In this document: positions 3,586 to 41,850 of the stretch, piece after piece
Position numbering within the stretch: position 1 is the first letter of the stretch
How the letters are laid out: each line of letters begins with the position of its first letter
Assembly: GCA_951406725.2 (NCBI GenBank)
Contig: OX597836.1
Span: forward strand, 46,996,001 to 47,060,000
DNA length: 64,000 bases
Source of the DNA: Octopus vulgaris
Taxonomy: Eukaryota
Direction: 5' to 3'
Notes under the pieces: generated by a model
The model's input: the letters and a program-made list of their open reading frames with translations, nothing else
Told to the model about the DNA's origin: nothing
The model's database searches: none
Position numbers and translations under genes: made by a program

Positions 3586-4552
3586 GCTAGATAGAAAGAC
3601 AGAGAGAGAGAGAGAGAGAGAGAGAGAGAGTGGTGGAGATAGATGTGTGCGGAAATGTATGTATTTTCATATATTTGGAATGTATGACATTAATAAAATA
3701 AATGTATGTGGGCTGATAGATGTGTTTCGTTGCTTTTTACTCCGAAATTGATTCGTCAACAAGAGTTATGCAAACGAAGAGCAAAGAGCTTATTCAACAT
3801 CGTAAATCATTTATGTAAAGACATTAAAACAGAGCTGAGCGTAATTCAGCTTTTAACAGCAAGATGACTCCACTAGTTCTGGAGACATCAATAACAACGT
3901 AAGATGGCAGATTTAATTGTATGTGATGTTTGTGTGATCAACAGAACGACCAATAGGAACCTACAAAAATTAAAAACAGATCTGTTGCGTTATGGTTCTT
4001 CTTCCCATTTTTTTTGTTTTCTTTTTCTCATCAATAATTAAGCTTTATAACTGTTTTATGTATTTTGTTGGTAGAAATGATAATGTACTACTTTGACGTC
4101 ATTAGGTGTCATAATGTCCAAAATTAGAAACAGCTTTCAAGTGATTTCGAACATAATTATTTATGCATGTACGCGCACGCGCGCGTGCAAACACACACGG
4201 ACACACACACACACACACACGAGGACACACACATACACACATAGTGTCGTCATTATGTCATAATGGAGCTTTATATACAAGTTATGATATTTAGAGTGCC
4301 AAATAGCTAAGTGTAAAAATGAAAATATTAGTTAATGGTTTACACTGCTTTGTGTATGTGTGTGTGTGTTTATATATATATATATATATATATGTGTGTG
4401 TGTGTGTGTGTGTGTGTGTGTGTGTGTGTGTGTGTGTGTGTGTGGTATGTATATGTATGTGTGTGTGTATGTGTGGTATGTATATGTATGTGTGTGTATA
4501 TATATATATATATATATATAAATGTAATAAGTGACAACTATTCGTTAGCCAT

Positions 4553-4613
4553 GATAAGACTCCGAGTTTCGGATGTCGGGATGGGAATCCATGCCGCCAT
4601 CTCTTCAGTTATC
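4553..4613 (-). ncRNA. Type I hammerhead ribozyme (GUC site)
   Basis: Reverse complement: gataa-CUGAAGA-gatg..catc c-GAAA-ctcgga-GUC-ttatc; stems I, II and III all pair. Confidence 0.85.
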
Positions 4614-4641
4614 CGGCCATCAGTATTTTTTCCGATGGTCG

Positions 4642-4702
4642 GATAACTGAAGAGATGGCAGCGTGGATTTCCACCCCGACATCCGAAACTCGGAGTTTTA
4701 TC
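4642..4702 (+). ncRNA. Type I hammerhead ribozyme (GUU site)
   Basis: gataa-CTGAAGA-gatg..catc c-GAAA-ctcgga-GTT-ttatc. Confidence 0.8.
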
Positions 4703-4871
4703 ATGGAATAACGAATAATTGTCACATATTACATTTATAGATAAATTCCTCTATTTACATAATATCGAGGTCTCTTTCTTTCTTTTGTTGTCTAGCCACT
4801 TTTATATATATATATATATATATATATATATATATATATATATATATGTTTGTATGTATATATAGATATAT

Positions 4872-5096
4872 TTCTTTATTAACCACAAGGGGCTAAACAC
4901 AGAGTGGACAAACAAGGGCAGACAAACGGATTAAGTCGATTATATCAACTCCAGTGCGTAACTGGTACTTAATTTATCGACCCCGAAAGGATGAAAGGCA
5001 AAGTCGACCTCGGCGGAATTTGAACTCGGAACGTAGCGACAGACGAAATACGTCTACGCATTTCGCCCGGCGTGCTAACGCTCTTGCCAGCTCGCC
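4872..5096 (-). mobile_element. tRNA-derived SINE with Meta-like central domain (family M); other copies ~21676-21870, 54978-55190, 59778-59955 (all minus)
   Basis: RC head ggcgagctggc..gagttcaaattcc (B-box-like) followed by gactttgcctttcatcctttcggggtcgataaa..agtacc, recurring four times in the window. Confidence 0.8.
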
Positions 5097-6849
5097 AGGC
5101 ACAAGCGTAACACCCTCCATGTTAACTATTCTCTGTTTCCCTCCAAAAATAAACAGAATTTTGTTTATTTCTTTACTTTGTTCTTATTGTATTTTACTAT
5201 TTCTGAAAGTCTATGTTGTCCACATTGCTCAGTTAATTGTCCATATTGCCTCTGCTGAAAAGATATTTTCTTTTCTCGCTAAGCATGTAAATTACGAATG
5301 TTTCAATTTGCTTAAGCTGTCACTTTGTCTGGGCCAGCCCCGTCGGATGAGGTTTATGTTTAAGGACATTTTGGCTGGGATCCTGTCATCTTTTGAGAGT
5401 TATGTATAGTATTCAATTAAGACGCGATATCGATGGAGATTGTGTTGATACACTTAACAGATTTGGCGACTATGCAGACGTCCCACGCTATATTGTAATT
5501 TGTAGTTTACTTAATGTTATGACACACTAACAGATATACTGGTGACATTACGACAAGTTGGCAGAATTACTTGATATGTTATGATTGTATCACATATTTA
5601 TTAGATATGTTAAGATGACAGATTAATTGAAAGATATTAAGACAACATAACAGATCTAATCGATATTTTATGAATGGATAGCAGTTTTCCGGTTCGTATT
5701 TTTATATAACATTGACGACAGTTTCAACAATATATATATATATATATATATATATATATATATATATATATATATATATATATATACATACATACATACA
5801 TACTTATTTTTTTATTCTTTTAGATGTTTCAGCCACTTGATTGCAGCCATGCTGGAGCAACGCCTTAAAGAGTTTTATTGGAAGAACTCGTCAAAGACTA
5901 TATATATTTATTTATTTTTTTTTTTTATTTAGTTTCAGCTCACAAGCTGTGGCCATGCTGGGGCACCGCCATTTATATATATATATATATATATATATAT
6001 ATATATATATATATATATATATTAGTGTACATCTATTTGTCCCATAATTATACGTTAATTATTAGCGCCCTTGCTGATGAAGAACACGGATAACAAAGTA
6101 TTTTATTTTTCATCCCCTTCGAAATTACTCTTAACCGTTGTTTGGACTTTGACTATTCTATTTATTATGCAAGGTGACCTGTTTGGGGTCATCTCTTTTG
6201 TGTATAAAGGTACACTAATTTTATATGAAAAATATGTTGTCTATTTTATGTATGCTAACCACTGGTAGAACATTTCTCTAACTTTCCTACTCTCTCTCTC
6301 TCTCTCCCTATATATATATATATATATATATATATATATATATATATAGTATACACACACACACACAAACACACACACACACACACACACACACACATAT
6401 ATATATATATATATATATATATGCAACTTTCACAAACATACTATTTACTATTTATTGTTTTTGTATTTTAATGATTTTTATAAGGTTTTTATAGTGTATG
6501 TTTTCAATATGGTGTGAATAGCATCTTTCATTATTAAATTCTTTAATAGAGGTTTTTCTCTAAATTATACACACACACACACACACACGCACACACATAT
6601 ATATATATATGTATACGGTAATAACGATTTCTATCGGTTTGTTTCGAGACGCATAAATTATAATGGTTATTGAAAAGTTTTGTCTTTTTTTCAGCATATT
6701 TGGCATTAGAATTTTTCTTTTGCCCTTATCTTGTAAATTATTTATAAATTTTACCTTTAAAGGTATTTTTGATATGCTGGCCATTGATAAATTTTTTTTC
6801 CCGAAAATAATTTTATCCTACATTAGTTATATATATATATTTATATATA

Positions 6850-39315: not shown

Positions 39316-40199
39316 TCCGAAATGGGATTTGAGAGTGAGTTATCTCACCTGTCCATGACTAAGATTTTAACACCGGATGAGAAAGAACTGAGTTAATGAT
39401 AGTTAAGTCATCCATTTTTCCAGCGGATTTAAAAACTTTGGGCCAGACTTGAAGAATGAGTCGAGTTTCTTTTTTTTCTTTTGGCTTTGCTGATGTTGTT
39501 ACAACACCACTAGTTCACTTAATTTAATACGTGAAGTCTATTTAGATGACTGGAACTTTATTGTAGCGACTGAACAAGATTGGAACTTTGAACACAAAAG
39601 CCTGAAAAATACTGCATGATATTTAGTCAAATGCTCTAACTACTTTTCTAGTTCACCACACTTGAAGTTCTGCGCTAATTCGAACTATCTGCGCTCTTGA
39701 TTGAATATTCTTCTATGAAAGTCAAAATAAGAGGAAGTCGTCTGCTCTCCGATTTCTCATTACCAACGGCTACAAAGAACAGCTATGCAGATCAGCATCC
39801 TACAAATAGGCAGCTAGTAACACATATTTCGTTTTCCTTGCATGGGTTTAACCAACTTCAATAAGTTTCATGAACATTGAAAACATGAATGAATTCACAC
39901 TTTACGCTCACAACTCTATTTTCAGCCTTAGCAGCTATTACAGTTTACAAATCACTGCATTTTATAGTTTGCCAGCCATTTTGCAGCTTTATTACTTTAA
40001 ACCGACATCATTTTGCTTCTATTGTTACACATTCTTCTTCGTTCGTTGCAACAAGAAAAACTGAACTACGAAAGAAACGTTCGTTCAGCTGGTGCCACAC
40101 GAAACGCATGATTAACTGAATAAATCAGCTAGCTTTCTGAAAGGATTTCATTCAAAGGCAACGAAATTATCTGCTTTAAACTGTGACATTCAAAAGGAC

Positions 40200-40249
40200 C
40201 TCTCATAAATATCCAAATATAAAACTATTCTTTCATAAATATATTGTCT
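40200..40249 (-). CDS. Possible 50-nt host exon (phase 0-2)
   Basis: acttttttcAG | RQYIYERIVLYLDIYE-AG | GTcctt; weak donor, but its phases bridge exons 45815 and 25725. Confidence 0.2.
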
Positions 40250-40488
40250 CTGAAAAAAGTTATGTACCGCTACTTCTATCTAAAGAGATAAACTTTCGAA
40301 TTTAATTCATGAACTGCTGTGTTTACTTTTTTACTTAGCAGTCCTCTATAGTTCATGAACTACTATATATATATATATATATATATATATATATATATAT
40401 ATATATATATATATATATATATACTTACATACATACACGATAGTTTCTTACCATTAAGACACATAGTATGGGCAGCTTTTTATCATGT

Positions 40489-41580
40489 TGTTGTGGCGAG
40501 AGTACGACACCCTCTGATGAGAATAGACGGGGCAACTACATATGAACAGTAGCGGGCTGACGTAGTCGGCAATTCATAGTTTGGTTTTCGAAATCCAGTT
40601 ACAGTTCGCAGTTCAAGTTCGTGTGTTGGAAATATTGATTGTTGGTTCGTTACGTATTTGTTACTGCCGCTGATTCTATTTTGTATTGTTATAATACTGT
40701 TATAACTATCTATCGCCGACAATATCAACCGAATTACGATATTGGAGGCGTAAGGATATAACAACTGGCAACGAGGATTTTTGGAAGCTCACGTAAGTTA
40801 TTTGATAATTTGTGCGTCATACAAATTGGTTAAATTATGGAGAACCTATTAACCGCAGTAATACAGCTTCAAGAGAAGCAACAGGAACAACAACTACAGG
40901 AGTTGCAGAAGCAAATATTACAACAACAACAACAACAGTTCATTGAGTTACAGTGAAGGAAGTCAGAAAGTTCGATTACGCCAGACGGCGTGACGAACTC
41001 GATTTCTAAATTCACTTATAATCCGGAGGATGGTATTACGCTTCCTGCGTACTATAGAAGGTACGAGGAATATTTTTAACAAAGTTTGCAAGTCATGGTC
41101 GGATGAGGAAAAAGTGAGGTTATTACTGCGCAAGGCTGCTCCCGCCGAACATGAACGCTACTGTAACTTTATATTGCCCAAAAAGTCGAGTGAGATTTGT
41201 TTCCACGAAACTATTGAATTACTATCAAAGATCTTTTGCGATAATAGTTCATTATTTAACACTAGCATGGAGTGTTGGAACTTAACAAAAAATGACGATG
41301 ATGACTTTATTACATACGCCGGATTGGTCAACCGTAAGTGTGAAAAATTTAAACTTCAGGAACTCACTCCAGATGTGTTTAAATCCCTTATGTTCGTACA
41401 AGGCCTTACAGCAACCGAAGGTAGAGAAATTCGGGCAAAAACTCTCTCAAAAATGGAGCAAACGAACCAAGACTTAACCCTACAGACCATTGCAGAAGAA
41501 TGTCAATGGTAAATTTGAATGACGACATGAAAAATATTCAAGAGAAAGATACCGCAAAAATTCAGATGTCCCGACCCGGA
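40489..41580 (+). mobile_element. Gypsy-type LTR retrotransposon 5' remnant: LTR (40489-40763), PBS, decayed gag
   Basis: TG..CA LTR, then tggcaacgaggat at 40766 (one mismatch to a tRNA-Ser(GCU) PBS); gag MENLL..FTYNPEDG..WSDEEKVRLLLRK..HERYCNFILPK. Confidence 0.85.
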
Positions 41581-41653
41581 AATATACATACACACACACA
41601 CATATATATATATATATATATATATATATATATATATATATATATATATATAG

Positions 41654-41850
41654 TTAATCCAAACATGAAAGCACAAAAAAACACAACAACAGGACGTGGA
41701 ACGAGTATAGTATTATTGGACGCTCAGGAAAGAAGGAAAGAATGAGGGTTTTACGTTTCGAGCGGAGCTCTTCGTCGGAAACATAGAAGGAAAGATCCAG
41801 AGAAGGGATGACAGAGGAAAAAAATTCGCCAACGGTACACACGCAGTCAC
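41654..41850 (-). mobile_element. ~200-bp TA-embedded unit with a minimal hammerhead-like motif (41748-41782)
   Basis: RC: gttt-CCGACGA-a gagc(tcc)gctc-GAAA-c-GUA-aaac; tail cctgagcg..aatac resembles the 15157-15560 units. Confidence 0.65.

Follow-up and report, generated by a model that had tools for sequence, protein, structure and literature searches.

What left fifteen hammerhead motifs, many of them beside (TA)n microsatellites, within some 37 kb of one octopus contig? The window analysed here is a stretch of 64,000 nucleotides of Octopus vulgaris DNA (GCA_951406725.2, contig OX597836.1, 46,996,001 to 47,060,000, forward strand). An initial annotation had read in it a community of type I hammerhead ribozymes from about eight families, set down in (TA)n by Naiad-type Penelope-like elements (PLEs) and their ribozyme-only derivatives. 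Our analysis argues strongly, on sequence grounds, that several PLE families and one retrozyme left these motifs as the hammerheads of their 3' terminal repeats, likely written into (TA)n by the PLE reverse transcriptase (RT) and endonuclease, and that in one family, whose core pair at positions 3 and 8 is G3-C8, a compensatory swap has likely preserved the function of the core. The cluster as a whole is mostly known PLE biology; the core variant is new, and a side finding concerns the targeting of the retrozyme by long interspersed nuclear elements (LINEs).

The motifs were scanned with our own type I descriptor (a core that accepts any Watson-Crick 3-8 pair and tolerates no more than one further change, together with stems I and II and a self-complementary stem III), with 20 local dinucleotide shuffles of the window as the null model at three settings. 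Inspection of each place detected the type I layout at all 15, with C3 at 4608(-), 4647(+), 7022(+), 7487(-), 15285(-), 15495(-), 23777(-), 26018(-), 26178(+), 27014(-), 32025(+), 32438(-), 38388(+), 39276(+) and 41778(-), which is 5-60 nt from the positions first given. The descriptor recovers 13 of the 15, eight of them without core change if G3-C8 is counted as a pair. It misses 23777 (mismatches in stem I and stem II) and 39276 (G8A and one stem I mismatch), degenerate copies in families whose other members do score. The window holds 8 motifs at the strict setting against a shuffle mean of 0.1 (maximum 1), 14 against 1.75 (maximum 4) at the relaxed setting and 15 against 3.9 (maximum 10) at the loosest, where two additional weak matches appear at 44296 and 57652. 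The shuffles do not match the motif density, and both the 15 motifs and their palindromic stem III stand as initially annotated. Three pairs are the two inverted arms of single insertions: 4608/4647 (arms 4549-4621/4634-4706), 26018/26178 (25853-26074/26122-26343) and 32438/38388 (palindrome 32367 to 38459). The 15 motifs thus correspond to about 12 insertions in about nine families. They are true hammerhead-ribozyme folds, left by the ends of several PLE families. Two further CUGANGA cores, 6074(+) and 13232(+), have partial stems and fail the descriptor; the latter has a palindromic stem III, with G at position 17.

Chance matches in AT-rich hairpin repeats, or in miniature inverted-repeat transposable elements (MITEs) and Helitrons, are an extremely improbable source of these motifs. 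Several cassettes are indeed DNA palindromes, one copy lies inside a Helitron, and the loosest scan yields 3.9 chance matches per window. Against this stand the strict excess (8 to 0.1), 11-13-bp target duplications, variable truncation, PLE open reading frames (ORFs) upstream, and a distant metagenome relative, with 41% identity, whose canonical hammerhead occupies the same position (L432; L labels denote our extracted loci).

The protein-coding parents bear out the PLE origin that had been annotated. Four of the nine families trace to parents with RT plus a GIY-YIG endonuclease at the C-terminus, two of Hydra type and two of Neptune/Nematis type, and a fifth does so via one locus; the remaining families are one retrozyme of about 360 nt and three without a parent found. 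A young Hydra-type family is present as a 6-kb palindrome at 32301..38454 (unstranded), consisting of two head-to-head, 5'-truncated, frameshifted copies with hammerheads 32438(-) and 38388(+) and a 66-nt tail on the left arm only. Across the endonuclease region, none of the 150 scored matches of this family falls below 95% identity, and intact ORFs of 726-727 aa occur in tandem and inverted arrays (L104/L105), with the hammerhead about 1.1 kb past the stop. The available text of PMC8557442 defines the Hydra clade by RWK, DKT, a CxCX5C-type linker and a GIY-YIG at the C-terminus without CCHH, and gives it canonical hammerheads and (TA)n insertion. Read for these motifs, the 727-aa ORF has RWK and DKT, no CCHH, and no cysteines within GIY-YIG; the 726-aa ORF is assigned by motifs, with no Pfam family, a GIY-YIG Pfam match above the cut-off being found in L118 only. 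The CxCX5C linker is exact in L299 and in a second Hydra-type PLE of the window (30572-31933), and its middle cysteine is replaced by F in the young family.

This second PLE is 5'-truncated and, with its 3' untranslated region (UTR), occupies 30030..31933(-); its C-terminal GIY-YIG has no internal cysteines. A 38-nt piece of the UTR (about 30030) adjoins the 27014 cassette in L379, and for this reason the cassette (26804..27021(-), canonical hammerhead) is likely the 3' end of the same PLE, apparently split off by an internally deleted L1/Tx1-type LINE at 27056..29970(-) (ORF1 28703-29584, ORF2 end 27296-28345, 5' limit approximate). The UTR also contains 137-bp tandem repeats at 30089-30495. 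The Neptune-type 3' end at 15157..15358(-), with hammerhead 15285, and a second copy at 15373..15561(-), with hammerhead 15495, share an A6U change that is found family-wide; a relative at 41653..41851(-) has U4C (hammerhead 41778). A Neptune-type ORF precedes the motif of this family in L250, where the motif lies some 750 nt downstream, and a similar arrangement is seen in L102. A CX2-5CxxC linker and two cysteines within GIY-YIG were detected in L102/L250 (the A6U parent) and in L118 (the G3-C8 parent).

The G3-C8 family is represented in the window by a palindromic 3'-end insertion at 7363..7689(-), with arms 7361-7472/7522-7633 and a 13-bp target-site duplication (7350-7362/7690-7702). In its hammerhead, 7487, the core reads GUGAACA and the site is UUU; stem I is 7 bp and stem II 5 bp long, an extra G is present, and the palindrome measures 6 nt. 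The minimum-energy monomer fold of this motif consists of stems I and II. A 44-nt exact pattern of this motif has 1,714 genome matches, and the control has 0. On contig C1, 5' truncation and junctions vary among the first 30 exact copies, and inversion occurs; the variable junctions of these unselected copies rule out a fixed MITE-like unit, which the best-scoring matches had suggested for the 7363 palindrome. The parent (L118), a young and autonomous element, has a 1,025-aa open frame with RT, C-terminal GIY-YIG, a CX3CX2C linker and two cysteines in the GIY-YIG core, the motif lies 1.0 kb past its stop, and many parent copies are at 99%. Many insertions of this family (many of L071-L100; L118:2480-2510(-)) begin right after a stretch 5' of stem I that resembles an intron end, with branch-point-like, pyrimidine-tract-like and AG-like parts; in Drosophila Penelope an intron ends at helix I, according to the available text of PMC4209133.

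The G3-C8 swap persists beside endonucleases that are 77-91% identical, while loop II changes; in six of 20 such subfamily loci the motif is intact or can still be recognised on the right strand, and in the others it is absent or has a further change. C3-G8 in the G3-C8 context was found in only two copies. Double changes at positions 3 and 8 among the genomic copies amount to 23, including eight A3-U8, explained by transitions, and two C3-G8, and give no sign of selection. A sister family, with a 57% identical protein, has the identical layout and place; 12 of 15 loci read C3-G8 and A9C. Both-sided changes separate the two families at four of 12 pairs, namely the 3-8 pair and one pair each in stems I, II and III. 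A tail-only remnant of this sister family lies in the window at 41928..41997 (unstranded), between two (TA)n tracts, without a hammerhead. The natural covariation at 3-8 reported in the portions consulted of PMC4209133 and PMC3088659 is U3-A8, and G3-C8 is described as an engineered mutant with partial rescue of cleavage (PMC11167929; PMC8495972; PMC3884650, as far as consulted). No natural G3-C8 core was found in the literature searched, which for PMC4209133 covers portions of the text. One abundant family carries a naturally swapped core pair with cutting predicted; the compensatory swap likely keeps its core functional.

Other core changes are fixed as well. A6U was found in 99 of the 100 matches listed (of 4,359) for the 15285 family, U4C in 85 of 95 copies of the 26018/26178 family, and, among 14 loci related to 39276, C3-A8 in six and U3-A8 in one of the seven that score as hammerheads. 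The window copy of this last family is an older cassette at 39125..39376(+) with an inverted tail piece of about 80 nt, its hammerhead 39276 having the G8A found family-wide. The A6U, U4C and G8A families already had the change in the master copy when they amplified, in keeping with the finding in vitro that insertion does not need cleavage (PMC11167929, text consulted); since these families still amplified, cutting is probably weak or not required for them to spread. Alternatively, all motifs with a variant core, those of the G3-C8 family among them, could be catalytically dead, the fold surviving as a structural or protein-binding PLE 3' element or by descent. We regard this alternative, which differs from our reading on activity only, as doubtful but serious. 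The fixed changes, with A9C in the sister family, are in its favour, as are the UUU site and weak 6-nt palindrome of the G3-C8 motif and, in the accessible part of PMC11167929, insertion in vitro without cleavage and an anole element at whose cleavage site no RNA ends were seen. Against it, the reciprocal 3-8 double change is kept in the diverged subfamilies while loop II drifts, as selection on the pair predicts, and in a PLE hammerhead studied in the literature cited above some cleavage is regained with the engineered double change. A compensatory swap that would preserve function in G3-C8 remains our preferred explanation.

The 23777 copy is an older version of the G3-C8 family (23405..23826(-), degenerate hammerhead), carried as cargo by a 2.7-kb non-autonomous Helitron-like repeat at 22255..24904(-), which is interrupted at 24344-24742. 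Helitrons are defined by 5' TC, a 3' hairpin and CTRR; this repeat has 5' TC and a 3' hairpin with CTAG, the exact CTAG end being found in six of the 11 copies listed. The repeat captured a G3-C8 PLE end together with degenerate telomere-like repeats and spread it, and the 3,912 search candidates include both contexts. The telomere-like repeats at 23411 were considered as a mark of endonuclease-less PLEs and dropped, the copy being Helitron cargo and the family parent having GIY-YIG.

The 26018/26178 family occupies 25761..26434 (unstranded) as a head-to-head insertion of a unit of about 360 nt, with hammerheads 26018(-) and 26178(+) and U4C family-wide. Tail-to-head joints were found in six of 20 loci, the unit measures 339-366 nt in three loci, and no PLE ORF was found upstream in 20 loci with 1.5 kb of flank. 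Non-LTR retrozymes are tandem non-coding units of 170-400 nt with a type I hammerhead, and judged by its sequence organisation this family is a non-coding retrozyme of about 360 nt. Of the ribozyme-only derivatives initially annotated, this one family remains; most cassettes are instead what 5' truncation has left of the 3' ends of PLEs that code for protein.

Some 30 nt before the retrozyme core, with a 15-17-bp duplication, lie the ends of two LINE families (161 and 222 candidates) whose ORFs encode AP endonuclease-RT and zinc knuckles, and nine of nine exact matches to the junction have LINE ORFs upstream. The site was targeted repeatedly, because L363 has three LINE insertions there, two of them in tandem round one duplication. 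For the first family, 11 of the 41 3' ends listed coincide by coordinates with known junctions or cores; among 12 others that were picked, five are at a hammerhead repeat, three in other LINE sequence and four elsewhere. For the second family, seven of eight 3' ends picked from 40 are at a hammerhead repeat of three related families (five of eight by an automatic pattern). These 16 of 23 and seven of eight examined ends exceed the 20% of copies in one target by which PMC4494074, in the part available, recognises target specificity. In L408/L409 the LINE end and cassette are duplicated as an inverted pair (98.7%), so the composite also moves as a unit; divergence, at about 95% for both LINE and cassette, does not separate hitchhiking from targeting, whereas the triple insertion in L363 does. 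The window copy of the LINE site (26146) is empty. In 20 junctions of 100 nt there was no Rfam match to the small nuclear RNA targets sought. The loci with targeting LINEs are L362, L363 and L403-L431, and one of the LINE families seems to carry ORF1 only. The window's own LINE was rejected as hammerhead-targeting, only three of 25 3' ends being followed by the 27014 cassette, which the query favoured. Its 3' end is repeatedly followed (L386, L387, L390, L391, L395, L398, L402) by one repeat ending in a hairpin and CTAG, perhaps Helitron cargo.

We tentatively propose, as plausible but somewhat short of probable, that octopus PLEs amount to a natural mutagenesis series of the hammerhead core: a working G3-C8 pair would be fixed in an active lineage, neighbours with A6U, U4C, A9C or G8A would have risen to thousands of copies, each family would have its cleavage tuned or would do without it, and one ribozyme repeat would serve L1/Tx1-type LINEs as a fixed landing site with which they ride along. 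If so, G3-C8, otherwise seen by us only as a laboratory rescue mutant, works in nature.

The association with (TA)n was confirmed. The 250 nt downstream of the core contain (TA)5 in 24 of 30, 23 of 30, 25 of 30 and nine of 15 copies of four families (15 of the 19 loci of the fourth could be oriented), against 13.5% of 4,173 random non-microsatellite positions. This association is already published for Hydra PLEs, octopus included, Hydra-1_Obim of Octopus bimaculoides being placed in (TA)n in the supplement of PMC8557442, as far as available. Most cassettes had been described as (TA)n-bounded with the 7363/23411 family as the exception, which needs amending: the 7363 family has (TA)5 within 250 nt downstream in 24 of its 30 genome copies, 23411 lies inside the Helitron, and the 39276 cassette has (TA)n on one side only. 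Outside TA, the 7363 family shows 11-13-bp target duplications, read by eye, in eight loci (L001, L005, L011, L015, L019, L026, L028, L030). The marks of endonuclease-positive PLEs are present: partial tandems, an inverted truncated arm, a one-sided tail, and a single ORF with RT and GIY-YIG in L104/L105 (726-727 aa) and L118 (1,025-aa open frame). Three cassettes illustrate the flanks and tails. A head-to-head insertion of one PLE 3' end at 4521..4802 (unstranded; hammerheads 4608(-, GUC) and 4647(+, GUU), canonical core; 1,669 pattern matches) has its tail on the right arm only and (TA)n on both sides. The cassette 6866..7262(+), with canonical hammerhead 7022, a long loop II and palindromic stem III, also has (TA)n on both sides. 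The cassette 31985..32244(+), with canonical hammerhead 32025, has 2,648 family candidates.

Is the window special? In 72 evenly picked 10-kb pieces (720 kb of the 2.8-Gb genome) the strict scan detected 35 motifs, against 2, 4 and 0 in three shuffles, or 3.1 per 64 kb. The eight strict motifs of the window are about 2.6 times this background, and the flanking 40 kb has one. Extrapolation gives about 1e5 strict motifs per genome, a rough figure, 7 of the 35 sampled motifs belonging to one tandem array. Side observations on the wider population include a seven-copy hammerhead array of about 359 nt with an inverted arm (L122:2300-4560), a related U3-A8 hammerhead pair (L220:4680-4900), and U3-A8 cores in several families (L157, L169, L143, L429, L431; also in the random sample). 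Of the four possible Watson-Crick 3-8 pairs, this genome therefore has three.

That Naiad-type PLEs and ribozyme-only derivatives have in this window a landing pad of a special kind is highly improbable. The excess of strict motifs (8 against 3.1 expected, with one in the flanks) and the one true retrozyme family are compatible with such a pad, and octopus Naiads do insert in (TA)n, with at most half of the core, according to the consulted supplement of PMC8557442. Counted as events, the excess shrinks to six against about 2.3 expected (Poisson p about 0.03 by hand calculation, for a window picked for looking rich), and the window is itself richer in positions near (TA)n (20% against the 13.5% average). 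The community initially annotated is thus close to the genome background, and the cluster represents the upper tail of a population spread over the whole genome. The Naiad label also gives way. Naiads have an N-terminal endonuclease, no canonical hammerheads and, in cephalopods, only remnants (PMC8557442, available text); an N-terminal GIY-YIG was seen in no parent found, all being C-terminal, and canonical hammerheads are present. The label fails wherever parents could be examined. The three parentless families may differ, because octopus Naiads in (TA)n exist.

In the mechanism that we favour, the GIY-YIG endonuclease would nick TA-rich DNA, and reverse transcription, with two starting points close to the 3' end, would produce the tail. 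Synthesis would usually stop after 150-400 nt, often after extending both strands, which would leave most insertions with only the hammerhead end. New insertions would regenerate (TA)n flanks, so families would pile up in TA-rich regions, and the palindromic stem III would let two hammerheads of a tandem transcript cut as a dimer. AT-rich nicking, both-strand extension and two internal start sites that explain the tail are described in PMC11167929, and dimer cleavage by minimal hammerheads, weak in vitro, in PMC4209133; the same insertion geometry, internal priming and in vitro dispensability of cleavage are published in PMC8557442, PMC4209133 and PMC11167929 (all cited for the text available).

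Several results weigh against our interpretation. Rfam at gathering score has no hammerhead match in the window, or on 26100-26430, and none is among the 150 of 334 matches listed in an e-value scan; the latter was rejected as evidence, being dominated by microRNA matches driven by microsatellites. Most motifs other than 7487 have alternative minimum-energy monomer folds that are not hammerheads, and the G3-C8 stem III self-duplex reaches only -0.2 kcal/mol. The four compensatory pairs come from one comparison with a single chosen sister sequence. A Hydra-like endonuclease is upstream of the 4608 family in one of 30 loci, so that its parent rests on one locus; no parent ORF was found for 32025 in nine loci with 5-6 kb upstream, or for 39276 in 14 loci with 1.5 kb (the parent of 7022 was not searched for). 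In the random sample, only 10 of 29 strict motifs have (TA)5 downstream.

Further repeats in the window are five near-identical (99%) 83-bp tandem copies at 12005-12419, an ORF with DUF7083 (Pfam PF23309) at 40994-41512(+), probably a retrotransposon gag-like fragment, and non-LTR RT fragments at 52696-53598(-), 56832-57287(-) and 63684-63998(+), RVT_1 being confirmed for the first.

Young abundant families with differing cores and intact parent ORFs bring the role of PLE hammerheads, which cut poorly and were dispensable in the one reconstituted system, within direct experimental reach. If the G3-C8 core is natural, searches built on the standard CUGANGA descriptor would overlook entire families, and the LINE-in-retrozyme arrangement adds a target type for site-specific LINEs.

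Compared with known systems, and within the text available of each cited source, the window motifs resemble the minimal type I hammerheads of PLE pseudo-LTRs (Cervera and de la Pena 2014, PMC4209133) in the short palindromic helix III, the extra base 5' of stem II, the many families per genome, the mostly solo truncated copies, the opposite-strand pairs 100-700 bp apart and the natural U3-A8 covariation. The natural G3-C8 core sets them apart from the text covered there, and the extrapolated 1e5 motifs, counted with a different descriptor, exceed the 2,000-9,000 reported. PLEs of the Hydra clade, Hydra-1_Obim among them (Craig et al. 2021, PMC8557442), share RWK/DKT, the CxCX5C-type linker, the C-terminal GIY-YIG without CCHH, canonical hammerheads and (TA)n; the likeness rests on described motifs, and in the young family of the window another residue takes the place of the middle cysteine in the linker. 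Neptune/Nematis clade PLEs share the CX2-5CxxC linker and the two cysteines inside GIY-YIG with the G3-C8 and A6U parents, whose assignment is to either of the two clades, whereas the cores here are variant. Naiad PLEs share the (TA)n preference, inverted structures and tails, but their N-terminal endonuclease and absence of a canonical hammerhead both fail here. Metazoan non-LTR retrozymes (PMC7229834; bioRxiv 10.64898/2026.07.22.740005) have the same non-coding unit of about 360 nt, tail-to-head joints and type I hammerhead, and differ from the fixed U4C and PLE-type inverted insertions found here. The targeting LINEs, whose clade call rests on domain architecture, agree with the Tx1-clade elements Tx1L, Keno and Tx1-Mar (PMC4494074) in the AP endonuclease-RT ORF2, the zinc-knuckle ORF1, a fixed site in another repeat, the 15-17-bp duplication and tandem insertions sandwiching one duplication; the target here is a hammerhead retrozyme, which is not among the targets named for those three.

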